58,070 nucleotides of DNA, from NCBI GenBank assembly GCA_964553125.1, contig CAZKJW010000001.1, forward strand, positions 31,316 to 89,385, read 5' to 3'. Below are positions 655-28,410 of the stretch, piece by piece. Every line of letters begins with the position of its first letter. The first letter of the stretch is position 1. A model generated the notes under the pieces. That model searched no databases. It saw only the letters and a list, made by a program, of their open reading frames with translations, and was not told the DNA's origin. The position numbers were made by a program, and so were the translations under genes. This DNA comes from an uncultured Oscillospiraceae bacterium. Its GTDB lineage: Bacteria > Bacillota > Clostridia > Christensenellales > Aristaeellaceae.

Positions 655-681
655 CGCGAAAGAAACAGGCACTATTATGAA
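655..681 (+). promoter_or_regulatory. Phage-specific promoter-like motif, copy 1/9 (CGCGAAA-N3-WCA-N7-TTATGAA)
   Basis: CGCGAAAGAAACAGGCACTATTATGAA, 32 nt upstream of the ATG at 713. Confidence 0.5.
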
Positions 682-712
682 AACCTGATGATATTTCAAA
701 GGAGATGGAACA

Positions 713-787
713 ATGGTAGGAATTGTAGGTTGTGTGTTTATTGCTGTTGGAGCCATGCTGGTGGCGAAATGGATTAAGGACGTCTGA
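713..787 (+). CDS. 24-aa hydrophobic peptide
   Basis: AAAGGAGA SD 7 nt before the ATG. Product MVGIVGCVFIAVGAMLVAKWIKDV. A terminator follows immediately. Too short for the ORF track. Confidence 0.4.
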   Translation: MVGIVGCVFIAVGAMLVAKWIKDV

Positions 788-792
788 CGGAC

Positions 793-822
793 AGAGCCCG
801 ATTGCAAGGGCTCTTTCTTTTT
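793..822 (+). terminator. Rho-independent terminator
   Basis: AGAGCCC-gattgcaa-GGGCTCT plus TTCTTTTT. A 24-nt stretch is identical to the terminator at 5715-5745. Confidence 0.75.
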
Positions 823-867
823 GCCGCTATGCGCGCTATTCTAAGATAGAAGGGCTATTCTAAATTA

Positions 868-960
868 AGGGAGTTCGAAGAAACGACTAAGGGCGAGGAC
901 ACTCCAAAGGAGTACCGTAGCCTTGTATCCAGCGCCGCTTGCAAATCGGTGATGGGCGCA
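868..960 (+). ncRNA. Conserved structured element, copy 1/3 (candidate cis-regulatory RNA, class unknown)
   Basis: AGGGAG-N11-GACTAAGGGCGAGGAC, hairpin ACTCC-AAA-GGAGT, CCGTAGCCTTGTATCCA, hairpin CCG-CTTGCAAAT-CGG, TGATGGGCGCA. See findings for the compensatory changes relative to copies 2 and 3. Confidence 0.45.
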
Positions 961-1087
961 AAAAGAATCGGGGTGGCAGATGTGGCCTTCTTGTGTTTCG
1001 AAGGAGGGCATCGAGGGCGCGTGAGCCGCCTTCTTTATGGTCGAATTCTATATTAGCAAATGCTCACTAAGAAATGGAGGTACTCAT

Positions 1088-1507
1088 GTGGGTGCAGCGA
1101 TTCGTCCTGAAATCTCTGTGAAAAACCGTTATTGGCTTCCTAAGCATCGTTATTACGAGCTGTATCATTTCTGCTTGCAATACCCGGAATGGAATAAGAA
1201 CTATCTTTCGCTTGATGGATATTCTGCAAAATCCGGAAGCGTGGTTGAGCAACAGTGTTCATATGAAACGGTAGACCCAACCGTAGTTTATGCAGAAGCA
1301 CGGCTATATTATCGTGAACGGATAGAGATGATCGAGAATGCGGCAAAGGAGGCCGCGGCAGATCTATATTTACCGATGCTTCGGGCAGTAACCGAAGGGA
1401 TTTCTTACGAGCATCTGAACGCTCAGAGCAGAATACCGTGTTGCAAAGACGTATGGTATACGATCTACAGGCGATTCTTTTGGCTTCTTGACAAGGCGCG
1501 TAAATAA
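1088..1507 (+). CDS. Putative phage transcription regulator (sigma-70 region-4-like / RinA-ArpU-like HTH); tentative
   Basis: GTG at 1088 lies 6 nt after a GGAGGT SD (the track starts at 1037). RYYELYHFCLQYPEWNK near the N-terminus. C-terminal HTH-like TEGISYEHLNAQSRIPCCKDVWYTIYRRFFWLLDKAR. The family call rests on memory of similar phage proteins. Confidence 0.35.
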   Translation: MGAAIRPEISVKNRYWLPKHRYYELYHFCLQYPEWNKNYLSLDGYSAKSGSVVEQQCSYETVDPTVVYAEARLYYRERIEMIENAAKEAAADLYLPMLRAVTEGISYEHLNAQSRIPCCKDVWYTIYRRFFWLLDKARK

Positions 1508-1523
1508 CATCGCTCCTTATGAA
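1497..1523 (+). promoter_or_regulatory. Phage-specific promoter-like motif, copy 2/9
   Basis: CGCGTAAATAACATCGCTCCTTATGAA. It overlaps the stop of the upstream gene, and AAAGGAG follows directly. Confidence 0.45.
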
Positions 1524-1536
1524 AGGAGCTGGTAAA

Positions 1537-1713
1537 ATGGGACAAACAATTTGGACGGGTTTTCTGCTAACGATCGGCTGGTTTTTATCCAGAGTTTGTA
1601 TTAGCTTTGTTGTAGGGTTTATGAATGCTCTGCTGTACAGCGTATGGCCCTGGTATCGAAAAATCATCGACGCATATGAGAGCAGAAGGTGTAATTGGAA
1701 GCGGAAATACTAA
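1537..1713 (+). CDS. 58-aa two-TM membrane protein
   Basis: ATG 9 nt after AAAGGAG. Product MGQTIWTGFLLTIGWFLSRVCISFVVGFMNALLYSVWPW... Confidence 0.55.
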   Translation: MGQTIWTGFLLTIGWFLSRVCISFVVGFMNALLYSVWPWYRKIIDAYESRRCNWKRKY

Positions 1714-1725
1714 GTAACTTCGGAT

Positions 1726-1762
1726 AGGGGTCATGTGACGTAAGCATGGCCTCTTTCTTTTT
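1726..1762 (+). terminator. Rho-independent terminator
   Basis: AGGGGTCATG-tgacgtaag-CATGGCCTCT plus TTCTTTTT. Confidence 0.7.
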
Positions 1763-1815
1763 CAGCACGCAGGTGACAGCGAACTGTGGTAAAATCATAG
1801 TATCGGAGGGTGAAA

Positions 1816-2061
1816 ATGATATTGTATATCGTATTGGCGATTGCTTTAGGTACAGTTGCAGGAATTGTAGGATACGAAATAACAGCCAGAATCAGGCGGC
1901 GAAACTGTATCGGAGCGCTTCGAATGGATCGATCGGATCCGGACGAGGCGCCTTATTTATTTCTGGAACTGGACCCGGACGGGATGCAGAAGATTCACAG
2001 GTATAAAACCGTGACACTGCGGGTAAGGATCGAGAACTATCTTCCAAACTCATCAAAATGA
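1816..2061 (+). CDS. 81-aa protein with an N-terminal TM helix
   Basis: GGAGG 6 nt before the ATG at 1816 (the track uses GTG 1810). Product MILYIVLAIALGTVAGIVGY... Confidence 0.6.
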   Translation: MILYIVLAIALGTVAGIVGYEITARIRRRNCIGALRMDRSDPDEAPYLFLELDPDGMQKIHRYKTVTLRVRIENYLPNSSK

Positions 2062-2064
2062 AGG

Positions 2065-2091
2065 CGCGAAACTAACATCGGCTATTATGGA
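2065..2091 (+). promoter_or_regulatory. Phage-specific promoter-like motif, copy 3/9
   Basis: CGCGAAACTAACATCGGCTATTATGGA. Confidence 0.45.
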
Positions 2092-2123
2092 GAAAACCAT
2101 AAAAACTGAAAGGAGAACAGAGG

Positions 2124-2501
2124 ATGGATGAGATGAGAGAAATGCTGGATCGGGCATATGCGGACACGCTTCAGGCGGTTGCCGATGCCAGAAACGGTAG
2201 CGAAGAAGCAAAGTGGCAGTTGCAAAAACTGAGCGAACTCCACAAGCAGCGGATGAGCGTGAAGCAGTCTGAAGACGAAACCTATGCGCGTTATGAAGAA
2301 CTGCGCATGAAGGAAGAACAACTTAAGGACGGCAAAAAGGATCGCATCATCAAGATTGTGCTGGACGGAGCAGGCATTATTGTACCTGTCGCGGTGTCGA
2401 GCTACTGGATGGCGAAGGGACTGACTTTTGAAGAAAAGGGGACGTTTACATCCCGAACCGGTCAATGGCTGTCGAGTCATCTGCGACTGTTCAGAAAGTG
2501 A
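2124..2501 (+). CDS. Coiled-coil protein with a C-terminal TM segment
   Basis: AAAGGAGAA SD. Charged heptad-like N-terminus, then IVLDGAGIIVPVAVSSYWMA. Confidence 0.6.
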   Translation: MDEMREMLDRAYADTLQAVADARNGSEEAKWQLQKLSELHKQRMSVKQSEDETYARYEELRMKEEQLKDGKKDRIIKIVLDGAGIIVPVAVSSYWMAKGLTFEEKGTFTSRTGQWLSSHLRLFRK

Positions 2502-2517
2502 ATGGAAGCTCAAAGCG

Positions 2518-2553
2518 AGAGTTCGTGTGAAATACACGGGCTCTTTCTTTTTA
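2518..2553 (+). terminator. Rho-independent terminator
   Basis: AGAGTTCGTGT-gaaat-ACACGGGCTCT plus TTCTTTTTAT. Confidence 0.75.
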
Positions 2554-2554
2554 T

Positions 2555-2581
2555 CGCGGAAAACACATGGGCTATTATGAA
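2555..2581 (+). promoter_or_regulatory. Phage-specific promoter-like motif, copy 4/9
   Basis: CGCGGAAAACACATGGGCTATTATGAA, 2 nt after the terminator T-run. Confidence 0.5.
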
Positions 2582-2609
2582 AAACCAAACACGAAAGGAC
2601 GGGTTTAAC

Positions 2610-2879
2610 ATGACGAGACGAGTGTATCTGTATGCGTTTGATTCTTTGTTTAAGATCGTGGATTGCAAGTTTCTTCAGGACGATGCAATTACAGTGACGA
2701 ACATGGTGCGGCTTGCTGACTGGATGGCGGAGAGGATTCCTGCCAACCTGAAGGTATATGCCGTTGATAACAGACCGAAACTGTACGCGGATTTTCGGGA
2801 AGCGACTAAGACCCACGATTTTACGAAGCAATTGGAGTTTGCGGACATGGTAAGTCATGAAGGCATTCGGTTGAAATGA
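2610..2879 (+). CDS. Hypothetical protein (89 aa)
   Basis: The ATG at 2610 follows AAAGGA. The track's N-terminal extension from 2502 runs through a terminator and a promoter motif. Confidence 0.6.
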   Translation: MTRRVYLYAFDSLFKIVDCKFLQDDAITVTNMVRLADWMAERIPANLKVYAVDNRPKLYADFREATKTHDFTKQLEFADMVSHEGIRLK

Positions 2880-2888
2880 TTTGGATGA

Positions 2889-2922
2889 GAAGGACGAGGT
2901 TTGCAAAGCCTCTTCCTTTTTG
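2889..2922 (+). terminator. Rho-independent terminator
   Basis: GAAGGACGAGG-tttgcaaag-CCTCTTCCTT plus TTT (one mismatch). Confidence 0.6.
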
Positions 2923-2936
2923 CGAGGGAGGACGGT

Positions 2937-3296
2937 ATGCGATACCATTTTACAAAACCTGAATTCTATGCGAGCCAATATGGGAGAATTTATATTTGCG
3001 AGCATCCGGTCTACAGCCGCTGCACGCTCTATGAAATCGGAGATAGCGGGCTTGCAGTGATTCAACAAAGATTCGATGCGAACGCTAAAACGACATGGTG
3101 GACGGAGATTGATCCGTGGCTGACGGATGCAATCTATCTACATGCAGAGTTTCGGAGCTTCTTTGACGAGCGAGCGAAGCCGGGTAAGGACGGGGTTTAT
3201 CCCACGGTTACCGTTCGCCAGATTATGTGGGCGCTCAAGATGAAGCCGATTCCCAAAGAACGCTGGGAGACAGTGTTCGATCGGAAAGATATTTGA
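2937..3296 (+). CDS. Hypothetical protein (119 aa)
   Basis: GGGAGGA SD before the ATG at 2937. Product MRYHFTKPEFYASQYGRIY... Confidence 0.65.
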   Translation: MRYHFTKPEFYASQYGRIYICEHPVYSRCTLYEIGDSGLAVIQQRFDANAKTTWWTEIDPWLTDAIYLHAEFRSFFDERAKPGKDGVYPTVTVRQIMWALKMKPIPKERWETVFDRKDI

Positions 3297-3298
3297 AG

Positions 3299-3325
3299 CG
3301 CGAAAAATTCAACGGTCTTTATGAA
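3299..3325 (+). promoter_or_regulatory. Phage-specific promoter-like motif, copy 5/9
   Basis: CGCGAAAAATTCAACGGTCTTTATGAA, followed directly by AGGAG. Confidence 0.5.
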
Positions 3326-3338
3326 AGGAGTGGAGACA

Positions 3339-3605
3339 ATGTTTGATTGGTTCTACAGGCATTTCAGCAAAGAGCATCGTGAGTGTGTGACATATGAAGT
3401 GAATCTTTTGAAACGATGGATATTTGAGTGGAGGACTCAGCCGGGTTTAAGGCAGTACTACGCCCCGCGTGTCTATTCTACGCTTGGTATCATACGTGAA
3501 CTCGATCCACATGTCGCAAAGCAGATCGAGGAGCGTAATGCTGAATTGCTGAAGAAAATCCGAGCAGATATTCCTGCGCGTTACTTTCAAGACGAAGAGC
3601 ATTGA
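3339..3605 (+). CDS. Hypothetical protein (88 aa)
   Basis: ATG 8 nt after AGGAG. Product MFDWFYRHFSKEHRE... Confidence 0.6.
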   Translation: MFDWFYRHFSKEHRECVTYEVNLLKRWIFEWRTQPGLRQYYAPRVYSTLGIIRELDPHVAKQIEERNAELLKKIRADIPARYFQDEEH

Positions 3606-3634
3606 GTCCACACAAGGGCTCTTGCTTTTTTCTT

Positions 3635-3661
3635 CGCGAAATTTACAATCCGTATTATGAA
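3635..3661 (+). promoter_or_regulatory. Phage-specific promoter-like motif, copy 6/9
   Basis: CGCGAAATTTACAATCCGTATTATGAA. Confidence 0.5.
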
Positions 3662-3695
3662 ACGACGGAATCTAAATTTGAGGAGGAATAGATAA

Positions 3696-3827
3696 ATGGC
3701 GATGTTGAGCACGATTTTCTATGCGTTTCTGAGCATGTGTGCAATGGTTGGATGCATCAGAGCGGCGAAGTTGGTGATCAAATCGATCAACAGTCTTTTC
3801 GACAAGATTGAGGATAAACTGGGGTAA
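3696..3827 (+). CDS. 43-aa hydrophobic peptide
   Basis: GAGGAGGAA SD. Product MAMLSTIFYAFLSMCAMVGCIRAAKLVIKSINSLFDKIEDKLG. A terminator follows. Confidence 0.45.
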   Translation: MAMLSTIFYAFLSMCAMVGCIRAAKLVIKSINSLFDKIEDKLG

Positions 3828-3830
3828 TTC

Positions 3831-3870
3831 AAAGAGCGGAGGCGAGCAAGGCCTCTTGCTCTTTGTTTTG
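3831..3870 (+). terminator. Rho-independent terminator
   Basis: AAAGAGC..GAGGC-gagcaag-GCCTC..GCTCTTT plus GTTTTG. Confidence 0.65.
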
Positions 3871-3876
3871 CTGTTG

Positions 3877-3960
3877 GGGGAGGCTAAAGGCCGACTAAGG
3901 ACGAGGACATTTATCCGCAGCCCTATACCCGAAGCCGGTTGAAGACCGGATACGGGCGAA
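3877..3960 (+). ncRNA. Conserved structured element, copy 2/3
   Basis: GGGGAG-N10-GACTAAGGACGAGGA-CATTTA-TCCGCAGCCCTATACCCG-AAG-CCGG-TTGAAGA-CCGG-ATA-CGGGCGAA. It ends 20 nt before the ATG at 3981. Confidence 0.45.
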
Positions 3961-3980
3961 AATGAAAGGAGAATGGAAAG

Positions 3981-4403
3981 ATGAAAAGTTTTCTGGAAAC
4001 CGTGATCGGGGGCGCAATCGGCATGATCGCGCTCTATGTGGTGGGCAAGGTTGCCTATCAGGCCGGCAAGGAAGTAGCAAAGGCGGAATGCGAATATGAG
4101 GCGCTTCGCAAGGATGTCAATAAGGATGGTTCTGGCACAACCGTCGCTCATGGGGTAAACCAGGACGGCGAGGAAGTGAGCGTCGTTTGGGAACGGACGG
4201 ACGCTGATTCCAAGCAAACCCCCGGTTCGTGTTCCAAGCGTTCTGGCAAGCTGTCCATGGCGCTAAATGCGATGAAGCTCTTCAGGCGCAAGGATTCTGT
4301 GATTGGGGATTTGGTGAAACACCCCGAGGCCCACAAGATCGAGGCATTTGTGGAAGGGAATGATTTGCACATCAACGTATCGAAACGACCAGCATTCGCG
4401 TAA
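3981..4403 (+). CDS. Membrane-anchored protein (N-terminal TM, 140 aa)
   Basis: AAAGGAGAA SD. Product MKSFLETVIGGAIGMIALYVVGKVAY... Confidence 0.65.
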   Translation: MKSFLETVIGGAIGMIALYVVGKVAYQAGKEVAKAECEYEALRKDVNKDGSGTTVAHGVNQDGEEVSVVWERTDADSKQTPGSCSKRSGKLSMALNAMKLFRRKDSVIGDLVKHPEAHKIEAFVEGNDLHINVSKRPAFA

Positions 4404-4450
4404 ATTGCAAGTTCTTCTATGGAAAAGTACCTATTTAGGAGGACGAAAAC

Positions 4451-4642
4451 ATGAAAAGGCGAGCTTTGACTTGGAACGAGAAAATGGCATGCAGAAGGTT
4501 GGCACGACTGAAGTGGAACGCACAAGGCGAGTTTTATAGCTGTCCGCATAATGACGCTATATTACTGGCGGTGTGGATTCTGACTCTCGGGCGTAATCCT
4601 GCGGAATTTAGCAGATGGGTTCTGGGACTTGACGAAACGTAA
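4451..4642 (+). CDS. Hypothetical protein (63 aa)
   Basis: TAGGAGGA SD 7 nt upstream. Confidence 0.55.
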   Translation: MKRRALTWNEKMACRRLARLKWNAQGEFYSCPHNDAILLAVWILTLGRNPAEFSRWVLGLDET

Positions 4643-4664
4643 GGCGTCGGAAAAGGTGATTCCA

Positions 4665-4706
4665 AAGCGAGGAGACTTTAGCAAGGTCTCTTCGCTTTTA
4701 TATTTT
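4665..4706 (+). terminator. Rho-independent terminator
   Basis: AAGCGAGGAGAC-tttagcaag-GTCTCTTCGCTT plus TTATATTTT. Confidence 0.7.
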
Positions 4707-4724
4707 CGAAAGGAGAGATGATGA

Positions 4725-5507
4725 ATGACGAACTGGCTGAAACGAAATGCTTCCACCATTCTGACGTGTTTGGGTGCGCTGGGCTTGGTGGGTACGGTGG
4801 TGCTGGCGGTGAGGGACACGCCCAAGGCCATGCGGGCGCTGACGGACGCCAAGGTGGAGAAGGGCTCCACAGAACTGACCAAGCTGGAGGCGGCGAAAGC
4901 GGCTGTACCTGCCTATCTGCCAACGATTGCTGCCGGAACAGGGACGCTGATCTGTTTGTTCGGTGCGAACGTACTCAGCCGCAAGCAGCAGGCATCACTC
5001 ATCAGCGCGTATGTGACACTGGATCAGGCGTTTGCGGATTATCGGGCGAAGGTAATCTCGTTCGGTGGAAAGGAACTGGACAAGGCGGCTCAGGATGCGG
5101 TAGAAGCCGAGCAGAAGGATAAGGACGAGGAACGTCCGCCGTGGGACGAAAAGCAGACCTTCTACCTGCAAGGGTATCCGAAGTTCTTTGAGGCGACCAT
5201 GGAACAGGTGCGATGTGCAGAATATGTACTGAATCGCAACTTTGTGCTTCGGGGAACCGTAACCTTCAATGAATTCCTGCGCTTTCTGGGCTTGGATGAC
5301 ATAGGCGAAAAAGGCGAAAAGATCGGCTGGGAGAGCTATATCGGCGAGGCATTCTACGGCTACTCATGGATCGATTTCGACCATATTTACCGCGTTACGG
5401 ACGATGGTTTGGCGATTTGCGAAATCTCCATGCCCTTCCTGCCCCACGGCTTTGACGAGGAGGAATGGAACGCTGAGGATAGTGTTCAAACCTGTGGTGC
5501 GGAGTGA
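4725..5507 (+). CDS. Membrane protein, paralog A of a 3-member family (unknown function)
   Basis: N-terminal TM (ILTCLGALGLVGTVVLAVRDTPKA), a second TM, then AYV..DYRAKV and NEFLRFLGL..GW blocks shared with 6082 and 8231. Confidence 0.7.
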   Translation: MTNWLKRNASTILTCLGALGLVGTVVLAVRDTPKAMRALTDAKVEKGSTELTKLEAAKAAVPAYLPTIAAGTGTLICLFGANVLSRKQQASLISAYVTLDQAFADYRAKVISFGGKELDKAAQDAVEAEQKDKDEERPPWDEKQTFYLQGYPKFFEATMEQVRCAEYVLNRNFVLRGTVTFNEFLRFLGLDDIGEKGEKIGWESYIGEAFYGYSWIDFDHIYRVTDDGLAICEISMPFLPHGFDEEEWNAEDSVQTCGAE

Positions 5508-5509
5508 GC

Positions 5510-5536
5510 CGCGAAAAAATCAGCCGGTATTATGAA
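5510..5536 (+). promoter_or_regulatory. Phage-specific promoter-like motif, copy 7/9
   Basis: CGCGAAAAAATCAGCCGGTATTATGAA, followed by AGGAGG. Confidence 0.5.
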
Positions 5537-5550
5537 AGGAGGCGAATGCG

Positions 5551-5706
5551 ATGAAAAAGATGGACGGTGTAAAAGCATTGGGTCTGATTGCGACCGTTGG
5601 AGGCCTTGCTCTGAGTTTGCTGAGCGGCTTCGTCGAGGACAAAAAGACCGATGCGAAGATCGAAGAAAAGGTTCGAAAAGCATTGGCTGAAGCGAAGAAA
5701 AACTAA
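5551..5706 (+). CDS. 51-aa single-TM protein
   Basis: AAAGGAGG 9 nt before the ATG. Product MKKMDGVKALGLIATVGGLALSLLSGFVEDKK... Below the ORF-track size cutoff. Confidence 0.5.
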   Translation: MKKMDGVKALGLIATVGGLALSLLSGFVEDKKTDAKIEEKVRKALAEAKKN

Positions 5707-5714
5707 AAAGGTTG

Positions 5715-5745
5715 AGAGCCCGATTGCAAGGGCTCTTTTCTTTTT
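5715..5745 (+). terminator. Rho-independent terminator (near-duplicate of 793-822)
   Basis: AGAGCCC-gattgcaa-GGGCTCT plus TTTCTTTTT. Confidence 0.75.
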
Positions 5746-5765
5746 GAAAGGGTGATGGCGGTTAT

Positions 5766-6095
5766 ATGACGCGAGAAGAAGCCGTATCGTGTCTGCGGGA
5801 ATATCGAAGAAAAAGCATGTGCAGGTCGTCTAAACAGCTATTTGGGTGGAGGCCGAATTATGATTTCAACAAAACCGTATACGAACGATACCTGATCCTT
5901 GAATTGATCGAACGAATCAATCAATCGTCTATGCCGCCGGTTGAAGTGATTCGTCAGTTTTATTATGAAATGGACGACATGTTGTGCGAGAGCGAATGCT
6001 CAAAGACGTGGGCATTTGCGTCTACAATGGAAAACTGTGCCGGAGATATATTGAGATATCTCCGTGGAAGGGAGAAAGAGAATGAACAAAATTGA
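5766..6095 (+). CDS. Hypothetical protein (109 aa)
   Basis: ORF-track frame. Overlaps the next gene start by 14 nt. Confidence 0.6.
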   Translation: MTREEAVSCLREYRRKSMCRSSKQLFGWRPNYDFNKTVYERYLILELIERINQSSMPPVEVIRQFYYEMDDMLCESECSKTWAFASTMENCAGDILRYLRGREKENEQN

Positions 6096-6852
6096 CTGGA
6101 AAGCAACGTGCGGCCGGGTTTCGCTGATGCTGAAAAAACATAGCCCGGAAATTTTGACCGGCATTGGTATCAGCGGCATGATTACCACAACCGTTCTGGC
6201 GGTACGCGCCACGCCTGAAGCCCTGCGCCGCATTGAAGAAAAGAAGGCAGAGCGGCATCGGAAGCTGACGGCAAAGGAGACGATTCAGGCAGCAGGGCGC
6301 TGCTATATTCCCTCTGCCATTACGGGAACGCTCTCGGCAGGCTGTCTGATTGGCGCAAGCGCCGTGAACGGACGCAGAAACGCGGCGCTGGCAACCGCAT
6401 ATAGTCTTGCAGAAACGGGCCTCCGGGATTATAGAGCCAAGGTAGTCGAAACGATTGGCGAACGCAAGGAAACAGCTATTCTGGAAGCGATGGACCGGGA
6501 GCGAGTGGAGAAGAATCCACCAGCAGCAAGCGATGTTGCTTATGTGGAAGGCAGTGGGCAGACGCTGTGCTATGACGCCATGTTTGGGCGATATTTCTAC
6601 TCGGACATCGAGAAGCTGAACCGCGCTGTGAATAAGCTCAATCGTCAGATGAGTACGATGAGCGAGCCTTATATTTCCTTGAATGAATTTTACATGGAGA
6701 TCAATCTGCCAACGGTGGAGATTGGCGATTCGCTGGGATGGAATGTGAATAAGGGAATGATCGAACTGCGATTCTCATCCCAGCTGGCTGGCGGCCGTAC
6801 ACCGTGCCTTGTGATGAGTTATGCCATTGCGCCGGAGTACGATTACTTTTGA
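6082..6852 (+). CDS. Membrane protein, paralog B
   Basis: GGGAGAAAGAG SD before the ATG at 6082. LKKHSPEILTGIGISGMITTTVLAVRATPEA, AYS..DYRAKVVE and LNEFYMEINL..GW. Confidence 0.7.
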   Translation: MNKIDWKATCGRVSLMLKKHSPEILTGIGISGMITTTVLAVRATPEALRRIEEKKAERHRKLTAKETIQAAGRCYIPSAITGTLSAGCLIGASAVNGRRNAALATAYSLAETGLRDYRAKVVETIGERKETAILEAMDRERVEKNPPAASDVAYVEGSGQTLCYDAMFGRYFYSDIEKLNRAVNKLNRQMSTMSEPYISLNEFYMEINLPTVEIGDSLGWNVNKGMIELRFSSQLAGGRTPCLVMSYAIAPEYDYF

Positions 6853-6894
6853 AGCGTAGGCTGGCTGGTGCTGTAACTCGGAAAATCGCACGAC

Positions 6895-6921
6895 CGCGAA
6901 AAATACAAGCGGCTTTATGAA
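6895..6921 (+). promoter_or_regulatory. Phage-specific promoter-like motif, copy 8/9
   Basis: CGCGAAAAATACAAGCGGCTTTATGAA. Confidence 0.5.
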
Positions 6922-6956
6922 GGGATAACCCCCGAATTTGAAAGGAGAAATGAGCA

Positions 6957-7232
6957 ATGGAAAACATGGAAATGAACGAGATCATCACCACGGAAGCAAT
7001 GGAAGATACGATGACGGAAGCGGTTGCTTCGGGCAAGTCTGGCGTAAAGACCGGTTTGGTGGTCGGTGGATCGATGGTTCTGGGAGCGGTGCTCTACGAA
7101 CGGGTTGTGAAGCCGGTCGGACGGAAGATTGGCGCAAAGATTGCCAGTAAGGTAGCTGCCAAGAAGGCGAAGAAGGCTGAAGCGGTGGATCTGTGTGACA
7201 TGGACATTGAGGACATTCCCGATATCGAATGA
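6957..7232 (+). CDS. 91-aa protein with a central TM and an acidic C-terminus
   Basis: AAAGGAGAA SD. Contains KTGLVVGGSMVLGAVLYERVV. Confidence 0.6.
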   Translation: MENMEMNEIITTEAMEDTMTEAVASGKSGVKTGLVVGGSMVLGAVLYERVVKPVGRKIGAKIASKVAAKKAKKAEAVDLCDMDIEDIPDIE

Positions 7233-7243
7233 GGAATCCCAAC

Positions 7244-7287
7244 AAGGCGAGAGCGCTGAATGCAAGGCGCTTTCGCCTTTTCTTTTT
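7244..7287 (+). terminator. Rho-independent terminator
   Basis: AAGGCGAGAGCGC-tgaatgcaag-GCGCTTTCGCCTT plus TTCTTTTT. Confidence 0.75.
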
Positions 7288-7316
7288 AATAAGAACGGCA
7301 AAGGAGTATGAAAGAG

Positions 7317-7913: not shown

Positions 7914-7925
7914 GGAGACATCATA

Positions 7926-9158: not shown

Positions 9159-9184
9159 ATTCCGATGAAAAGGAGGTTGACAGC

Positions 9185-24123: not shown

Positions 24124-24150
24124 CGCGAAAAATACATGCCCTTTTATGAA
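24124..24150 (+). promoter_or_regulatory. Phage-specific promoter-like motif, copy 9/9 (orphan)
   Basis: CGCGAAAAATACATGCCCTTTTATGAA. The only copy outside the left arm. It runs straight into a terminator hairpin. Confidence 0.4.
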
Positions 24151-24190
24151 GAGAGAAGACAATACGCCTTCTCTCTTTTCATTTTGTTTG
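24149..24190 (+). terminator. Rho-independent terminator
   Basis: AAGAGAGAAG-acaatacgc-CTTCTCTCTT plus TTCATTTTGTTTG. Confidence 0.65.
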
Positions 24191-24535: not shown

Positions 24536-24868
24536 ATGAAACGAGGCTCAAAGGAAGCGAAGTTTCAGAGCGCTCTGATTCGCGAACTGAAAAAGCGGTT
24601 CCCCGGCTGCATCGTGACGAAGCTGGACTCCGGCCACATACAGGGCATACCGGATTTGCTTCTTCTCTGGGGAAGACGCTGGGCTGCGCTGGAATGCAAG
24701 CGAAACAAAAGCGCGCATCATCAGCCCAATCAGGAGTATTACGTAAGCCGGATGAACGAGATGTCCTTTGCGAGATTTATATTCCCGGAGAACAAGGAGG
24801 AAGTCCTGAATGAACTGGAACAGGCATTCGGAGGTGGAGGGAACGCACGCGCTCCTCTCTCCAAGTAA
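24536..24868 (+). CDS. VRR-NUC domain nuclease
   Basis: AAGGAGG SD. E..FQ..LI..L....... then GIPDLLLLWGRRWAALECK (the G-x-PD ... E-x-K motif). Confidence 0.75.
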   Translation: MKRGSKEAKFQSALIRELKKRFPGCIVTKLDSGHIQGIPDLLLLWGRRWAALECKRNKSAHHQPNQEYYVSRMNEMSFARFIFPENKEEVLNELEQAFGGGGNARAPLSK

Positions 24869-25373
24869 TTATCACTGGATTGGCTACGACGAAACCAAAC
24901 TGGCGGAGACCTACAAGCGCAAACAGGCGATTGCAAAGGGCACAGAGCTTCACGAGTTTGCCGCCCGGTGCATTCGGCTGGGGCAGAAGCTGCCCAAGAG
25001 CCAGAAAACGCTCAACATGCATGTCAACGACGCCATCGGCTACAAGATGACGGCCGAGGTTCCTTTATATTATTCCCCCAATTGCTACGGGACGGCAGAC
25101 GCTATTTCCTTTCGGAACGGCATGCTGCGCATTCATGATTTGAAAACAGGCGAAACCCCGGCGCACATGGAGCAGCTGATGATCTATGCGGCGCTTTTTT
25201 GTTTGGAATACCGCGTGAAGCCCGCCGACATCAAGATGGAGCTTCGCCTGTATCAGAACGACCAGATCATTTATCATAACCCCGAGGTGGATGAGATTGT
25301 GCCAGTGATGGACAAGATTGTCAGCTTCGACAAAATCATCAACCGCATCAGAGAAGAGGAGGGCGAAGCATGA
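24810..25373 (+). CDS. PD-(D/E)XK (RecB/Cas4-like, DUF2800-like) nuclease
   Basis: THALLSPSNYHW, GTELHEF, GTADAISF..GMLRIHDLKTGE, QLMIYAALF. No Cys cluster. Confidence 0.65.
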   Translation: MNWNRHSEVEGTHALLSPSNYHWIGYDETKLAETYKRKQAIAKGTELHEFAARCIRLGQKLPKSQKTLNMHVNDAIGYKMTAEVPLYYSPNCYGTADAISFRNGMLRIHDLKTGETPAHMEQLMIYAALFCLEYRVKPADIKMELRLYQNDQIIYHNPEVDEIVPVMDKIVSFDKIINRIREEEGEA

Positions 25374-28141
25374 ACCGGGTCGGTGACGAAATTTTGATGC
25401 ACTACGGCGTGAGCGCCAAGGACGGCGCACCGGGGCGCGGTTCAGGCCGGTACCCTCTGGGAAGCGGCGAAGACCCAAACCAGCATCGCGGGGATTTTGC
25501 CAGCCGCGTACAGGAGCTGCGCAAGGCCGGCATGAGCGAAAAAGATATTGTGACGGCGCTGGGACTGAAAAGCACCTCTGAGCTGCGCGCAAGATATTCC
25601 ACGGCGGTGAACGAGCAGCGGACGCAGAAGATTGCCCGCGCCCGGCAGATGCTGGACGAGGGACGGAGCCGGGCGGAGATTGCCCGCGAAATGGGCATTA
25701 ACGAATCGACCCTGCGATCTCTTTTGAACGAGCGAAGCGCAGAGCGTACGCGGGCAGCACAGATCACCGCCGATTTTCTTCGGGCGCAAATCGAAGAAAA
25801 GGGAATGATCGACGTGGGCACCGGGGTGGAGCTGGAGCTGGGCGTGAGCAAGGAAAAGCTGAACCAGGCGCTGGCCATGCTGGAAGAGGAAGGCTATGTG
25901 CTCTATGGCGGCGGCGTGCCGCAGGTGACAAACCCCGGCAAGCAGACGAACATTAAGGTCATCTGCCCGCCCGGCACAGAACACAGGGAAATTTATGACT
26001 TTGAAAATGTCCACACGATTACGGATTACAAGATGCGGGTGGATGAGAACGGCGAGGAGCATTTTGAAAAGGGGTTTGAATACCCCGCTTCGCTGGACTC
26101 CAGCCGCTTGCAGATTCGCTATCGCGATGACGTAACGCCCGATGGCCACGCCGCCATTGAAAAGGACGGAACCATTGAGATTCGCCGCGGCTGCGCAGAC
26201 CTTGACCTTGGCGAAAGCCATTACGCGCAGGTGCGGATTCTGGTGGACGGGGACAAGTACCTCAAAGGCATGGCGTTCTACTCGGACGACCTGCCGGACG
26301 GCATCGATGTGGCGTTCAACACCAACAAATCGCCCGGACAGGAAGCGCTGAAGAAAGCCAAGACGGACGACCCGAACAATCCCTTCGGCGCGCTGATCAA
26401 GGAAGAGGGCGGACAGTACCACTACACCGATGAAAATGGAGAGCGCAAGCTGGGCCTCATCAACAAGACCCGCGCTGAAGGCGACTGGGGCGAATGGGCG
26501 GACGCGCTTCCTTCGCAGTTTCTTTCCAAGCAGAGCCAGCAGCTGATTAACAAGCAGCTTGGTTTGGCGATTGCGGACAAGCAGATGGAGTTTGACGAGA
26601 TTTGCGCGCTGACCAACCCCACGGTGAAGAAGCAGCTACTGGAGACCTTTGCCAACGACTGCGATTCGGCGGCGGTGCATTTGCAGGCGGCGGCCCTGCC
26701 GCGGCAGAAGTATCAGGTGATCCTGCCTATCGCTTCTCTCAAGGACAACGAGGTATACGCGCCCAACTATCAGGACGGCGAAACGGTGGCGCTGATCCGC
26801 TATCCTCACGGCGGCACGTTTGAGATTCCGATCCTGACGGTGAACAACAAGCAGGCGGATGGACGGCGCATTCTGGGGACGAACCCTGCAGATGCCATTG
26901 GCATCAATGCAGAGGTGGCGGCCCGCCTGTCTGGCGCCGACTTTGACGGCGACACCGTGATGGTCATTCCCTGCAACTCCTCCTCAAGCAAGGTGAAGAT
27001 CACTTCGACCCGTGCGCTGGAAGGCTTGAAGGACTTTGACAACAAGATGGAGTATGGCTCGACGGTGAAGGTAGACGCGGACGGTACGGAACACTACTAC
27101 CACAACGGCCATGAATTCAAGCGCATGACCAAGAGCCAGACCCAGATGGAGATGGGCAAGATCTCCAATCTGATTACCGACATGACGCTCAAGGGCGCGA
27201 CCACGGAAGAGCTGACCAAAGCCGTGCGGCACAGCATGGTTGTCATCGATGCGGAGAAGCACAAGCTGGACTGGAAGCAGAGCGAGATTGACAACGACAT
27301 CCCGGCGCTGAAAAGGAAGTACCAGATGCGCGTCGACGAGGACGGCAGCGTTCACACCGGGGCATCCACACTGATCTCGCGCGCCAAATCCCCCGTCGCG
27401 GTGCTCAAGCGCAAGGGCAGCCCAAAGATCGACCCCGACACCGGCGAGCTGGTCTACAAGGAGGTCGTGGAGGAATACACCGACAAGCACGGAAAGACCC
27501 GCGTGCGCACACAGGACTCCACGCAGATGGCGGAGACGCGGGATGCGCGGACGCTTTCCAGCGGGACTCCGCAGGAAGAAGCTTATGCTGCTTATGCCAA
27601 CAAGATGAAGGCTTTGGCGAACGAAGCGCGCAAGGAGATCATCTCCACAGGACGCATCCAGTACAGCGCGTCCGCCAGAGCCGCCTATGCGGAGGAGGTC
27701 GATTATCTGACCGCCCAACTGAATGTGGCGCTGAAGAACGCCCCGCGCGAGAGACAGGCGCAGCTTGCTGCTAACAGCGAGGTGAAGGCGATGAAAAAAG
27801 CGAACCCTGGAATGACCCAAAAAGAGGTCAAGAAACAGGCGCAGCTGGCGCTGTCGAGGGCGCGGACAAGGTACGGCGCGAAGCGCAATCCCGTCAACAT
27901 CACTGCCCGCGGATGGGAAGCGATTCAGGCAGGGGCAATCAGCGAGAACGTACTGAGCCAGATTCTCCGCTTTGCAGACACCGATCAGGTGAGAGCCTAC
28001 GCGACACCGCGCACAACCACGGCATTGTCCACAGGAAAACAGGCTCGCATTAAAGCGATGCGCGCTTCTGGCTACACAAACAGCGAGATTGCGCAGGCGC
28101 TTGGCATCTCGGCCTCAACCGTGTCGAAATACAGCAATTGA
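25370..28141 (+). CDS. YonO/QDE-1-like single-subunit two-barrel RNA polymerase with N- and C-terminal HTH motifs
   Basis: ETVALIRYPHGG...LSGADFDGDTVMVIP, then ~65 aa later MGKISNLITD (the DxDGD ... GxISN catalytic signature). HTH-like GRSRAEIAREMGINESTLRSLL and GYTNSEIAQALGISASTVSKY. N-terminal MHYGV...GSGRYPLGSGEDP. Confidence 0.6.
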   Translation: MNRVGDEILMHYGVSAKDGAPGRGSGRYPLGSGEDPNQHRGDFASRVQELRKAGMSEKDIVTALGLKSTSELRARYSTAVNEQRTQKIARARQMLDEGRSRAEIAREMGINESTLRSLLNERSAERTRAAQITADFLRAQIEEKGMIDVGTGVELELGVSKEKLNQALAMLEEEGYVLYGGGVPQVTNPGKQTNIKVICPPGTEHREIYDFENVHTITDYKMRVDENGEEHFEKGFEYPASLDSSRLQIRYRDDVTPDGHAAIEKDGTIEIRRGCADLDLGESHYAQVRILVDGDKYLKGMAFYSDDLPDGIDVAFNTNKSPGQEALKKAKTDDPNNPFGALIKEEGGQYHYTDENGERKLGLINKTRAEGDWGEWADALPSQFLSKQSQQLINKQLGLAIADKQMEFDEICALTNPTVKKQLLETFANDCDSAAVHLQAAALPRQKYQVILPIASLKDNEVYAPNYQDGETVALIRYPHGGTFEIPILTVNNKQADGRRILGTNPADAIGINAEVAARLSGADFDGDTVMVIPCNSSSSKVKITSTRALEGLKDFDNKMEYGSTVKVDADGTEHYYHNGHEFKRMTKSQTQMEMGKISNLITDMTLKGATTEELTKAVRHSMVVIDAEKHKLDWKQSEIDNDIPALKRKYQMRVDEDGSVHTGASTLISRAKSPVAVLKRKGSPKIDPDTGELVYKEVVEEYTDKHGKTRVRTQDSTQMAETRDARTLSSGTPQEEAYAAYANKMKALANEARKEIISTGRIQYSASARAAYAEEVDYLTAQLNVALKNAPRERQAQLAANSEVKAMKKANPGMTQKEVKKQAQLALSRARTRYGAKRNPVNITARGWEAIQAGAISENVLSQILRFADTDQVRAYATPRTTTALSTGKQARIKAMRASGYTNSEIAQALGISASTVSKYSN

Positions 28142-28158: not shown

Positions 28159-28410
28159 ATGACCAAAGGCTGCATGCTGACGACGTTTGACAATCCTTAC
28201 AATCCGTTCACTCAGTTTGAGAAGTGGTTTCTGTTTGACACGGAAAAAGGATACAACACTTGCGCGTACCTGGGGCGAATCGTCCGGACGAGCGACGAAT
28301 TCACCGAGGAAGAAAACGATTTGGCGAATGAGCGCGCAATTGACGAGATCATTAAGTATGATTTCAGAAACATTTACAGGAAAGTCTGCTCGAATGCGAA
28401 GAGAACATAA
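28159..28410 (+). CDS. Conserved phage protein of unknown function (83 aa)
   Basis: TTFDNPYNPFTQFEKWFLFD..KGYNTCAYLGR is a pattern I recall from many Firmicutes phages. Confidence 0.55.
   Translation: MTKGCMLTTFDNPYNPFTQFEKWFLFDTEKGYNTCAYLGRIVRTSDEFTEEENDLANERAIDEIIKYDFRNIYRKVCSNAKRT

Follow-up and report, generated by a model that had tools for sequence, protein, structure and literature searches.

A 27-base signal that is repeated ten times in a prophage of a gut bacterium is most likely the promoter read by the phage's own unusual RNA polymerase. The same signal recurs in related phages with hosts from two bacterial phyla, which gives an uncharacterised polymerase family a testable promoter. 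We found no published description of this promoter class. The sequence analysed (hereafter, the window) was the whole stretch of 58,070 nucleotides (GenBank assembly GCA_964553125.1; contig CAZKJW010000001.1, positions 31,316 to 89,385, forward strand), which is an Oengusvirus-like temperate siphophage with an integrase gene at 56696-57886.

The motif in the window

The motif CGCGAAA-N3-WCA-N7-TTATGAA was searched in the window, and 6 exact matches were obtained (655, 3299, 3635, 5510, 6895, and 24124), whereas none was expected from 100 dinucleotide-preserving shuffles. When up to 3 mismatches were allowed, exactly nine sites were obtained (the additional sites at 1497, 2065, and 2555 had one mismatch each), whereas 0.42 +/- 0.67 were expected. 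All nine sites were on the + strand with invariant internal spacing. Thus, the nine copies described in the earlier note were confirmed. A position weight matrix was then built from the copies of the window and of Faecalibacterium phage FP_oengus. The nine sites scored 26.8-42.4 bits, and one more, degenerate copy was found at 4397 (22.7 bits; CGCGTAAATTGCAAGTTCTTCTATGGA), whereas the next best site in the window scored only 10.6 bits. The motif end was located 13-35 nt from the start codon (14-45 nt in the earlier note).

Terminator-like hairpins were enriched in the region of 1-10 kb (29 found; 9.1 +/- 2.9 expected), and two of them directly abutted motif copies. No sigma-70-type -35/-10 pair coincided with any copy, and no -35 element was located at 16-18 bp. 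The textbook promoters that had been noted at 19100, 23775, and 56723 were present. However, the description of the array as autonomous minicassettes held for only half of the genes: about every second gene (starting at 1816, 2937, 3981, 4725, 5766, and 7308) had no motif of its own, and most of these genes sat directly behind a terminator. The features are summarized in Table 1.

Table 1. Motif copies and associated features in the window (all on the + strand)
Position	Feature	Gene that the copy would drive	Remarks
655..681	Motif copy 1 (exact)	ORF 712-786 (24-aa membrane ORF)	Predicted +1 at G679
1497..1523	Motif copy 2 (1 mismatch)	ORF 1537-1713	Overlaps the stop codon of gp1088; Shine-Dalgarno AGGAG starts 1 nt after the motif
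2065..2091	Motif copy 3 (1 mismatch)	ORF 2124-2501	
2555..2581	Motif copy 4 (1 mismatch)	ORF 2610-2879	Directly after terminator 2517-2545
3299..3325	Motif copy 5 (exact)	ORF 3339-3605	Shine-Dalgarno sequence abuts the motif
3635..3661	Motif copy 6 (exact)	ORF 3696-3827	Directly after terminator 3604-3621
4397..4423	Degenerate tenth copy, not listed in the earlier note		Upstream of ORF 4451-4642; 3 mismatches in a further search
5510..5536	Motif copy 7 (exact)	ORF 5551-5706	Shine-Dalgarno sequence abuts the motif
6895..6921	Motif copy 8 (exact)	ORF 6957-7232	
24124..24150	Motif copy 9 (exact)	Endonuclease-exonuclease-RNA polymerase operon	Conserved copy upstream of the operon; keeps its position in almost all relatives, 0.9-1.3 kb upstream of the polymerase gene
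24148..24187	Leader hairpin (stem 24148-24178) followed by a U-rich tract		Starts exactly at the predicted +1 (G25 of the motif); z = -3.64; read as an attenuator, a small RNA, or a 5' stabiliser
793..7279	Set of intrinsic-terminator-like hairpins punctuating the array		Stems at 793-814, 1726-1754, 2517-2545, 2896-2912, 3604-3621, 3844-3861, 4664-4698, 5714-5737, and 7244-7279; genes starting directly behind them (1816, 2937, 4725, 5766, 7308) have no motif and must depend on read-through
24536..25373	VRR-Nuc-type endonuclease (24536-24868) and Cas4-like exonuclease (24810-25373)		First genes of the conserved operon that ends with the polymerase
25370..28141	Candidate reader, 923-aa single-chain RNA polymerase (activity inferred)		Invariant SGADFDGD motif at about residues 521-528; helix-turn-helix motifs at about residues 55-80, 98-120 (sigma-70 region-4-like), and 890-921
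28174..28410	Small protein (phrog_4303)		Immediately downstream of the polymerase gene in all six reference phages; possible cofactor

Distribution of the motif and geometry of the start site

Failure of the motif to recur in relatives had been named in advance as grounds for rejecting the promoter reading; however, the same bipartite motif (family consensus CGCR-N4-WTACA-N5-TATAAT-purine) was found in every relative examined, including FP_oengus, about 80 IMG/VR contigs, Lactococcus phage 1706, and Arthrobacter, Gordonia, and Streptomyces phages. Across 82 related loci, 140 matches were on the gene strand and 0 on the other, and a looser family pattern gave 136:1 over 1.45 Mb. The copies clustered in the array of small membrane-protein genes, and the motif was conserved with the same layout in every clade that has the polymerase. 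FP_oengus had 14 copies, Arthrobacter phage Circum had 8 (CGCGTAAATTACAnGGGnTATAATAGA), Lactococcus 1706 had 12, Gordonia phage Schwartz33 had 8, and Streptomyces phage Scarif had 9 or more. The core TWCA-N5-TATWRT-RR gave 8:0 in Schwartz33 (0.02 expected) and 12:0 in 1706 (1.2 expected). In Circum, Schwartz33, and Scarif, as in the Firmicutes-type relatives, one copy was located just upstream of the endonuclease-exonuclease-polymerase genes. As for 1706, the equivalent copy was located upstream of the annealing-protein, helicase, endonuclease, and exonuclease genes, and no copy was found in the gap before its polymerase gene.

No sigma-70-type geometry fitted the motif. Shine-Dalgarno sequences started 1-5 nt after the AT-rich hexamer in at least 12 independent instances, and a tRNA-like gene started at motif position 26 in FP_oengus, although the latter is weak evidence because its anticodon loop is aberrant. 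The leader hairpin started at position 25 in most of the Firmicutes-type loci folded; it was conserved as a structure with different stem sequences in these relatives, but was weak and not significant in the actinophages. Thus, with these elements beginning at motif positions 25-29, the start must lie inside the motif, around G25, as at T7-type promoters, and not 5-10 nt downstream of TTATGAA as predicted in the earlier note; the absence of starts at the latter position, which was taken there as grounds against a promoter, would wrongly reject the promoter reading. All 14 FP_oengus copies had T or C, not A, at hexamer position 2. The copies were located between a terminator and a Shine-Dalgarno sequence with nothing else in the gap, so that no other promoter was available.

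The candidate reader

The conservation across hosts from two phyla argues for a phage-encoded reader. Non-structural genes shared by all five reference clades were two DUF6353 proteins, phrog_4079, the DNA polymerase, a helicase, an endonuclease, an exonuclease, the RNA polymerase, and phrog_4303. Only the RNA polymerase, the only conserved DNA-binding protein in all clades, carries helix-turn-helix domains, and key residues of these helices were invariant across the clades. Note that the co-occurrence cannot separate the polymerase from the co-conserved proteins phrog_4303 and phrog_4079. The protein looks like an RNA polymerase: the SGADFDGD motif was invariant, it matched phrog_4291 with E = 0, a weak Pfam RdRP hit fell on the catalytic loop, and RdRP hits were precomputed for some homologues. 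The same view was reached by Koert et al. with HHpred (bioRxiv 10.1101/842583). However, polymerase activity of this family has never been shown, the structure model was only moderate (pLDDT 70.6, pTM 0.47), and its Foldseek matches to beta-prime/Rpb1 chains were not significant (E >= 0.1). The label YonO-like, used in the earlier note, was not supported: the protein carries the beta-prime-type DFDGD motif, but profile comparison with YonO itself was negative. The sigma-like product of 1088-1507 (gp1088), the other candidate of the earlier note, was not supported as the reader. It had no Pfam family and fell in a PHROG of unknown function, its homologues occurred only in 4 Faecalibacterium-type phage records, and a profile search found none in the parts examined of the Lactococcus, Arthrobacter, Gordonia, or Streptomyces phage genomes that carry the same motif. 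Thus, the interpretation in the earlier note was partly supported, namely in that the motif behaves as a distinct, non-sigma-A promoter class read by a phage-encoded factor, with the polymerase of 25370-28141 as the best candidate.

With moderate confidence, we propose that the motif is a phage-specific promoter of about 27 bp read by this single-chain polymerase. The motif, its conservation, orientation, and position, and the geometric limits on the start site were established by the sequence comparisons, whereas the polymerase activity, the identity of the reading protein, and the exact +1 are inferred, no transcript or biochemical evidence of any kind having been obtained here. In this view, the fused helix-turn-helix domains would bind the upstream duplex boxes (CGCG(A/T)AA at about -24 to -18 and W-C-A at about -14 to -12), the AT-rich hexamer (yTTTAT in this window, TATAAT in the family) at about -6 to -1 would be melted, and RNA would start at the conserved purine right after it (G25), giving 16-38-nt leaders that begin at or just before the Shine-Dalgarno sequence. 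The promoters would drive the array of small membrane-protein genes at the left end of the prophage, and leaky hairpin terminators would let every second gene be expressed at a lower level. The copy at 24124, followed at once by a hairpin and U-tract, would drive the polymerase operon as a damped positive-feedback loop, and may also feed the late genes because almost all downstream genes are co-oriented with few terminators. In the lysogen, the array would stay silent until the polymerase is made, since it has no host-type promoter. However, no motif copy preceded the structural genes or most replication genes, and the full regulon of the polymerase and the source of its first expression are therefore unexplained. 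If the enzyme is not packaged in the virion, host polymerase must make it first; virion proteomics recorded in the Lactococcus 1706 annotation do not flag it as structural. A precedent is found in Thermus phage P23-45, in which two single-chain two-barrel polymerases each have their own conserved promoter motif, which is absent from relatives lacking the enzyme (PMC10770324).

Alternative readings and related promoter systems

A possible but less likely reading is that host RNA polymerase is redirected by a phage factor, with the hexamer as a sigma-A -10 element and the CGCG...ACA boxes, 5-11 bp upstream, bound by an activator that replaces -35 recognition, as in T4 MotA/AsiA sigma appropriation; gp1088 or the helix-turn-helix domains of gp25370 would then act only as a transcription factor. 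The hexamer is TATAAT in the Arthrobacter, Gordonia, and Streptomyces phages and TATAGT or TATAAT in Lactococcus 1706, and in these perfect or near-perfect versions a host -10 reading cannot be excluded. The gap of about 11 bp between the upstream box and the hexamer resembles that of T4 middle promoters, and gp25370 is annotated in many records simply as a helix-turn-helix DNA-binding protein. However, with a -10 element at motif positions 19-24, the start would fall near position 31, inside or beyond the Shine-Dalgarno sequence in at least 12 instances, inside the FP_oengus tRNA-like gene, and inside the 5' arm of the leader hairpin. The FP_oengus hexamers lack the A at position 2 that sigma-A needs, gp1088 is absent from most motif-bearing clades, and a 27-bp signal conserved across hosts with very different base composition and sigma-A preferences is hard to explain through host sigma. 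The invariant SGADFDGD motif would have no purpose in a mere activator.

Operator sites for a repressor or another DNA-binding regulator that silences or coordinates the left arm, with transcription coming from elsewhere by read-through (the main alternative in the earlier note), are unlikely and were not supported. The sites are repeated, of fixed sequence, and next to gene starts, the phage is temperate, and half of the array genes must be read through terminators anyway. However, the motif has no dyad symmetry, is strictly co-oriented with the genes (140:0; 136:1 with the looser pattern), and keeps a fixed short distance to the Shine-Dalgarno sequence or RNA start, and no sigma-70-type promoter exists in the gaps that it occupies. 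It also occurs with the same layout in phages described or classed as lytic, such as Lactococcus 1706, which is described as virulent, and in the Arthrobacter and Gordonia phages; no integrase was annotated in the parts of those records that were read. A signal acting in the transcript (processing site, translational enhancer, or protein-binding site) is the least likely. Strand specificity fits it as well as it fits a promoter, the sequence downstream of the hexamer (GAGACCCCTACGAAAGGA) is also conserved in the Gordonia and Streptomyces phages, and the spacer of copy 1497 pairs with the Shine-Dalgarno sequence. However, the copies share no RNA fold (z-scores from -1.8 to +1.2, with differing structures), the conserved upstream half often lies directly behind a terminator or overlaps the preceding stop codon, where little RNA would be present, and the motif also precedes non-coding products (the tRNA-like gene and the hairpin with a U-tract).

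Among known systems, the promoters of P23-45 (gp96 virion enzyme, AT-rich motif; gp64 non-virion enzyme, GC-rich motif) share a single-chain polymerase related to cellular beta/beta-prime, a conserved motif of about 15-30 bp directly upstream of start sites that is present only in relatives that encode the enzyme, and a polymerase gene under a phage-specific promoter (PMC10770324). However, the motif sequences are unrelated, the P23-45 enzymes are not reported there to carry fused helix-turn-helix domains, their promoters were mapped by ONT-cappable-seq and ChIP-seq whereas nothing was mapped here, and one enzyme is fused to the tape-measure protein, which is ordinary here. YonO of Bacillus prophage SPbeta is, like the enzyme proposed here, a single-chain polymerase with a DxDGD catalytic loop, encoded by a temperate siphophage of Firmicutes, which transcribes a long co-oriented block of phage genes from a phage-specific start site (PMC5467207). 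The sequence of its promoter, P_yonO, is undetermined, the yonK-yonN gap contained nothing resembling our motif, and YonO uses one known start site whereas this phage has 10 motif copies.

T4 middle promoters (MotA box plus sigma-70 -10 element) are likewise bipartite, with an upstream box about 11-13 bp from a -10-like hexamer and no -35 element; however, the start-site constraints here place the hexamer at about -6 to -1, not -12 to -7, no MotA or AsiA homologues were seen, and our motif is conserved across phyla. Sigma-A/sigma-70 housekeeping promoters share only the resemblance of the hexamer to TATAAT, and the A at hexamer position 2 is missing in many copies. T7/T3/SP6-class promoters of Pol-I-like single-subunit polymerases are, like the promoter proposed here, continuous promoters of about 23-27 bp with an upstream duplex recognition part, an AT-rich melted part ending at -1, initiation at a purine directly after it, many identical co-oriented copies in one genome, and hairpin plus U-tract terminators. 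The enzyme here is of the two-barrel (beta-prime-like DFDGD) type without sequence relationship to these polymerases, and the local resemblance of the Lactococcus 1706 and Scarif versions (ACTATAG) to SP6/T7 was not conserved across the family.

Motif copies and gene content of the window

The window was searched with the pattern CGCGAAA-N3-WCA-N7-TTATGAA, and six exact matches were found, whereas none was found in 100 shuffles. When up to three mismatches were allowed, exactly the nine sites reported in the earlier note were obtained, all on the + strand (0.42 expected); the observation made in that note holds. A weight matrix built from the copies in the window and in Faecalibacterium phage FP_oengus scored the nine sites at 27-42 bits and added one degenerate copy at 22.7 bits, against 10.6 bits for the best background site. 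Eight copies plus the degenerate one lie in 655-6921, and each ends 13-35 nt before the start codon of a small gene, often one with a predicted membrane helix. Intrinsic-terminator-like hairpins are three-fold enriched in the same 10 kb (29 found against 9.1 +/- 2.9). Sigma-70-type promoter matches are not enriched: a scan of 1-10 kb for a -35-like hexamer 16-18 bp upstream of a -10 hexamer gave 14 matches against 9.9 +/- 2.3 in the shuffles, and no + strand promoter-like site was found at any motif copy. However, the picture of minicassettes given in the earlier note needs one correction, because six genes of the array have no motif (see the table below); most of them begin right behind a terminator, so they must be expressed by read-through.

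Family scans identified the genes listed in the table. Gene order and content match those of FP_oengus. This phage belongs to a group that unites Faecalibacterium and Lactococcus phages with Arthrobacter, Gordonia, Streptomyces, Microbacterium and Rhodococcus phages (250 phage records), and the helix-turn-helix-bearing putative polymerase is the signature gene of the group (bioRxiv 10.1101/842583). Direct DNA similarity was not detected when the first 12 kb were compared with phage genomes by megablast. No complete tRNA gene is present in the window, only a 3' fragment, which is probably the left attachment site; the repeated words behind the integrase gene at the far right may be arm-type sites, and no matching att repeat lies within the window. 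Rfam gave nothing at gathering thresholds over the whole window. The three-copy non-coding element could be an RNA leader or riboswitch-like element, although Rfam finds nothing for it at gathering or permissive thresholds (with permissive thresholds on 800-1100, only a meaningless miRNA hit was returned). Host-type promoters are present, but only for accessory cassettes and the integrase (19100, 23775, 30436 and 56723). Of these, the promoter at 23775 and the small ORF on which it converges look like a type I toxin (holin-like toxin type) with an antisense RNA, and the first product of the gene pair at 19100 looks, by eye and without a family scan, like a BrnT/BrnA-type toxin-antitoxin moron.

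Positions of the genes and sequence elements in the window and in related phages
Genome	Coordinates	Strand	Feature
Window	480-524	-	3' 45 nt of a tRNA gene, ending in CCA, about 130 nt left of the first motif copy
Window	884-1030, 3892-3960, 9500-9545		Three copies of a non-coding element, (C/T)GACTAAGGRCGAGGACAyy...CCGyAGCC, each in the leader of a gene that lacks the promoter motif (starts at 1088, 3981 and about 9550)
Window	1512-1529		Promoter spacer (GCTCCTT) of motif copy 1497, complementary to the Shine-Dalgarno sequence that follows it, giving a 7-bp hairpin (z = -1.8, not significant)
Window	1816, 2937, 3981, 4725, 5766, 7308		Starts of genes without a motif
Window	4397		Degenerate motif copy
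Window	4725, 6064, 8228		Three DUF6353 paralogues
Window	11304		Primase-polymerase
Window	16335		Helicase
Window	19100-19590		Sigma-A-like promoter (TTGAAC-17-TATAAT) driving a two-gene pair; first product MRFEWDEEKNAINKKKHGISFE...
Window	19692		NrdD
Window	23000-23230		Iteron-like direct repeats (AAAGTGGCCAC, AAAGTGGGCA, AAATGGSC), about 1 kb upstream of the motif copy that precedes the polymerase operon
Window	23775-23983	+ (promoter)	Perfect sigma-A promoter (TTGACA-17-TATAAT) converging on a minus-strand 28-aa hydrophobic ORF at 23983-23900 (MMTDYETLSIVIMIIMLVFAVLSYKKDK)
Window	24124	+	Motif copy before the endonuclease-exonuclease-polymerase genes
Window	24230-24413	-	Zinc-ribbon-like ORF of about 60 aa, between the 24124 promoter and hairpin and the endonuclease gene
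Window	24536		VRR-Nuc endonuclease
Window	24810		Cas4-like exonuclease
Window	25370-28141		923-aa 'RNA-dependent RNA polymerase' (phrog_4291)
Window	28174-28410		Small protein of about 80 aa (phrog_4303, MLTTxDNPYNPF...W..D...GYN)
Window	30436-30444		Extended -10 promoter-like sequence (TGCTATAAT) in the 141-nt gap before gene 30515; the only obvious host-type promoter between the polymerase gene and the terminase gene
Window	32394		Terminase
Window	34904		Portal
Window	36150		Capsid-protease fusion
Window	40735		Tape-measure protein
Window	56696		Integrase
Window	56723-57886		Integrase with its own sigma-A-like promoter (TTGACA at 56723)
Window	57885-57975		Repeated CTGACGGA words
FP_oengus	2910-3006		Motif copy followed, with no leader, by a tRNA-like gene
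FP_oengus	18490		Second, weaker motif copy about 40 nt upstream of tRNA-Met
FP_oengus	22540		Motif copy
Lactococcus 1706	31060		Motif copy about 22 nt upstream of a tRNA-like sequence
Lactococcus 1706	51640-52050		AAAACTTCGGGA repeats at the place equivalent to the iteron-like repeats of the window
Gordonia phage (locus L086)	11802-16840		Leader after the hexamer (GAGACCCCTACGAAAGGA) conserved between copies
Streptomyces phage (locus L087)	7301-15060		Leader after the hexamer (GAGACCCCTACGAAAGGA) conserved between copies
Streptomyces phage Scarif (locus L087)	32340-32560		AAAGTGGCA repeats, very similar to the iteron-like repeats of the window and at the equivalent place

Recurrence of the motif and constraints on the start site

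Recurrence in relatives had been named in the earlier note as a condition that the promoter reading had to satisfy, and the motif did recur. FP_oengus has 14 copies, all on the gene strand, of which twelve lie in the small-gene array after the integrase, one lies at 22540, and one lies 0.9 kb upstream of the polymerase gene. In 80 IMG/VR loci fetched around polymerase homologues, together with the two phage records, 140 matches were found on the gene strand and none on the other, and in most of these loci one copy sits 0.9-1.3 kb upstream of the polymerase gene. Arthrobacter phage Circum, in which the polymerase is gp98, has eight copies of CGCGTAAATTACAnGGGnTATAATAGA. By de novo word counting, the equivalent was then found in three further phages, namely Lactococcus 1706 (CACAwsTTTTACAnnnnCTATAGTAG, 12 copies), Gordonia Schwartz33 (TCGCAnnWWTTACACGTCCTATAATGAGACCCC, 8 copies), and Streptomyces Scarif (9 or more copies). 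The shared core TWCA-N5-TATWRT-RR gives 8:0 in Schwartz33 against 0.02 expected, and 12:0 in 1706 against 1.2 expected. The family consensus is CGCR-N4-WTACA-N5-TATAAT-purine, and the version of the window has yTTTAT as the hexamer; the first box varies as CGCG, TCGCA and CACA. The motif thus co-occurs with the polymerase gene in all six reference genomes and in most of the IMG/VR loci that encode the enzyme; whether phages lacking the enzyme also lack the motif was not examined systematically. An incomplete scan of bacterial genomes with the exact pattern is of little use: it returned mostly single chance hits in unrelated taxa, and same-strand clusters were seen only in Clostridia-type contigs.

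The layout is the same everywhere. A cluster lies in the array of small membrane-protein genes, an array already noted for Arthrobacter clusters AM and AU (PMC5513430), and one further copy lies before the endonuclease-exonuclease-polymerase genes; in Lactococcus 1706 it lies before the annealing-protein, helicase, endonuclease and exonuclease genes. The iteron-like repeats upstream of this further copy in the window, with their counterparts in Scarif and 1706, may mark a replication origin or another protein-binding array conserved across phyla. In the window, transcription from the 24124 copy towards the polymerase operon would be antisense to the zinc-ribbon-like ORF; relatives such as L003 (one of the related loci) lack this insert, and their hairpin is followed directly by the Shine-Dalgarno sequence.

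The position of the transcription start was constrained from the features that follow the motif. In three window copies (1497, 3299 and 5510) TTATGAA runs straight into AGGAG, and among 85 non-identical instances, at least 12 have a correctly spaced Shine-Dalgarno sequence that begins 1-5 nt after the last T of the hexamer. In FP_oengus one copy is followed at motif position 26 by the tRNA-like gene, which ARAGORN calls 'tRNA-???' because of an abnormal anticodon loop; since ARAGORN gave only three tRNAs over all loci, the tRNA-adjacency argument rests on this single, atypical case. The copy before the polymerase operon is followed by a hairpin and U-tract whose 5' arm begins at motif position 25, in the window (24148-24187, z = -3.64) and in most of the Firmicutes-type loci folded, with different stem sequences in different clades. 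A sigma-70-type -10 element at positions 19-24 would put the start near position 31 and would cut off all of these features. The start is therefore placed at or before about position 25-27, with the conserved purine at position 25 as the natural candidate (in the window G679 for the first copy, G1521 for copy 1497 and G24148 for the copy at 24124), and the expectation in the earlier note of starts 5-10 nt beyond TTATGAA should be dropped. The -10 hexamer of sigma-A promoters, with A at position 2 and T at position 6, does not fit either, because position 2 is T or C in all 14 FP_oengus copies and in 4 of the 9 window copies. The inferred geometry is that of T7-type promoters, in which the AT-rich melted segment ends at -1, and not that of sigma promoters; it rests only on the positions of the Shine-Dalgarno sequences, the tRNA-like gene and the hairpin, no start site having been mapped, so that the match to a continuous promoter of about 23 bp of the T7 kind is left undecided. 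In this view the motif would work like a T7 promoter without being a member of that family: among the ORFs scanned (not every ORF above 150 aa), the largest are a DNA primase-polymerase, a helicase, NrdD, the putative two-barrel polymerase, terminase, portal, capsid-protease, tape-measure and tail proteins, and none is T7-like. As for the spacer of copy 1497, several FP_oengus copies have CCTCC in the spacer, and read-through transcripts might mask the ribosome-binding site, while transcripts started at the motif would leave it free.

The putative polymerase as candidate reader

A 27-bp signal kept across phages of Lactococcus, Faecalibacterium-type Clostridia, Arthrobacter, Gordonia and Streptomyces points to a phage-encoded reader. 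The non-structural proteins shared by all five reference clades are two DUF6353 proteins, phrog_4079, the DNA polymerase, the helicase, the endonuclease, the exonuclease, the RNA polymerase, and the small phrog_4303 protein encoded right after it. The phrog_4303 gene is found immediately after the polymerase gene in all six reference phages (36-48% identity), and its product, of unknown function, is a possible polymerase cofactor. Of the shared proteins, only the RNA polymerase has DNA-binding domains, namely a sigma-70 region-4-like helix-turn-helix at residues 90-120 and another at 890-921, and key residues of these helices are invariant across the clades.

The single polypeptide carries the beta-prime-type metal-binding loop (DxDGD) of two-barrel single-chain polymerases (YonO / crAss-like gp66 / P23-45 type): SGADFDGD, the signature of the beta-prime active site, is invariant in six phages from five host genera and lies at residue 524, comparable to FDNDGD at residue 535 in YonO. 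Similarity to characterised two-barrel polymerases was sought in several ways, and the results point in different directions and do not settle the relationship. The protein matches phrog_4291 with E = 0, and HHpred gave 95.7% to RdRP (10.1101/842583). A hit to Pfam RdRP PF05183 (E = 0.0067, 15.6 bits) is below the 23.8-bit cut-off but is located on the catalytic region, and precomputed RdRP hits exist for some homologues. The structure model is moderate (pLDDT 70.6), and its top Foldseek matches are almost all beta-prime/Rpb1/Rpo147 chains, although none is significant (E >= 0.1). Sequence and profile searches against solved structures in the PDB hit only the helix-turn-helix motifs. Comparison with YonO itself by hhalign, with two different profiles, was negative (probability below 1%), so the label 'YonO-like' used in the earlier note is a loose one. 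A virion polymerase fused to the tape-measure protein, as in Thermus phage P23-45, was also considered, but the tape-measure protein shows only a TMP_3 domain.

The other candidate of the earlier note, the 'sigma-like' gp1088, has no Pfam family, no PDB relative and a PHROG of unknown function, and it is restricted to Faecalibacterium-type phages, with no homologue in the parts examined of the Lactococcus, Arthrobacter, Gordonia and Streptomyces phage genomes, so it cannot be the conserved reader. It may still be a clade-specific regulator, since its C-terminus looks helix-turn-helix-like by eye. The interpretation in the earlier note was thus partly supported: a promoter class distinct from sigma-A promoters and read by the phage polymerase remains the preferred reading, but not gp1088 as the conserved reader, the predicted start site or the operator alternative.

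Model, alternative readings and comparison with known systems

In the model that we propose, the polymerase binds the two upstream boxes through its helix-turn-helix domains, melts the hexamer and starts at the next purine. In the array, strong promoters would drive tiny membrane-protein genes, and leaky terminators would pass a fraction of the transcripts on to the next gene. The copy at 24124 would drive the polymerase's own operon through the immediate hairpin and U-tract as a damped positive loop, and, given the near-absence of gaps and terminators downstream, it may also feed the late genes. The motif, its recurrence, its strand bias and its layout were observed directly in the sequences, and they limit where transcripts can begin; the assignment of the reader, its polymerase activity and the exact start are deduced, and neither transcript 5' ends nor initiation or binding by the enzyme was measured here. 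What first expresses the polymerase, and who transcribes the replication genes at 7.3-23 kb, is unexplained in this model. A more far-reaching reading, which we consider possible but somewhat less likely than not, is that the 923-aa protein is a self-sufficient RNA polymerase with built-in sigma-like domains, i.e. a minimal two-barrel catalytic core whose fused sigma-region-4-like helix-turn-helix domains recognise a 27-bp duplex promoter (CGCR-N4-WTACA-N5-TATAAT, with +1 at the next purine) without any host factor. Enzyme and promoter would then have co-evolved as a portable, host-independent transcription module, which would explain why phages of Firmicutes and Actinobacteria share it.

Among the alternatives, host polymerase plus an activator is the most serious, because the hexamer is TATAAT in several clades; it conflicts, however, with the start-site constraints and with the T-rich hexamers of FP_oengus. 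In particular, T4-type sigma appropriation (MotA/AsiA middle promoter), with a host -10 element at -12 to -7, an activator box at about -30, and activator and co-activator genes, is not matched: the start-site constraints contradict that placement of the -10 element, and the only candidate small regulator, gp1088, is confined to one clade (homologues of MotA and AsiA were not searched for specifically). A repressor operator, with dyad symmetry, function independent of orientation and dependence on a lysogeny module, is contradicted by the asymmetry of the motif, by the strand bias of 140:0, and by its presence in phages described or classed as lytic; it is present in Lactococcus 1706, described as virulent, and in Arthrobacter and Gordonia phages, for which no integrase is annotated in the parts of the records examined. 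An RNA-level signal is disfavoured, because the copies share no fold and the conserved upstream half usually lies behind a terminator or over a stop codon.

The closest precedent is Thermus phage P23-45, in which two single-chain two-barrel polymerases each have a conserved promoter motif and the motif co-occurs with the enzyme (PMC10770324). How single-chain two-barrel phage RNA polymerases find promoters is unresolved. For YonO the start site is known, but the promoter is stated to be undetermined (PMC5467207), and no similar motif was found in the SPbeta yonK-yonN gap or elsewhere in the 64 kb of SPbeta examined. For the present helix-turn-helix-fused family even polymerase activity is only predicted (10.1101/842583), and no description of this motif or of promoters for the family was found in the literature searched, which did not extend to subscription journals such as the 2008 Virology paper on Lactococcus 1706, which may discuss repeated promoter-like sequences. 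Promoter classes of phage polymerases are already known; what is new here is that the class belongs, in our reading, to an uncharacterised, very abundant family of helix-turn-helix-fused polymerases (more than 8000 protein clusters at 90% identity, many from gut metagenomes) and that it is conserved across two bacterial phyla. A defined consensus of 27 bp, with a predicted +1, clade-specific variants and culturable model phages (FP_oengus, Lactococcus 1706, Arthrobacter Circum, and the Gordonia and Streptomyces phages), makes the question testable. If confirmed, it would show a polymerase that carries its own sigma-like DNA-reading heads, would explain how these phages keep a base composition far from that of their hosts (45% against 63% G+C in Arthrobacter, PMC5513430), would give annotation rules for a very common group of gut prophages, and might offer a new orthogonal expression system for Gram-positive bacteria.

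In the Gordonia and Streptomyces phages the conservation between copies is not confined to the promoter, since the whole leader after the hexamer is also conserved, which suggests a shared translation-initiation leader or recent copy homogenisation.
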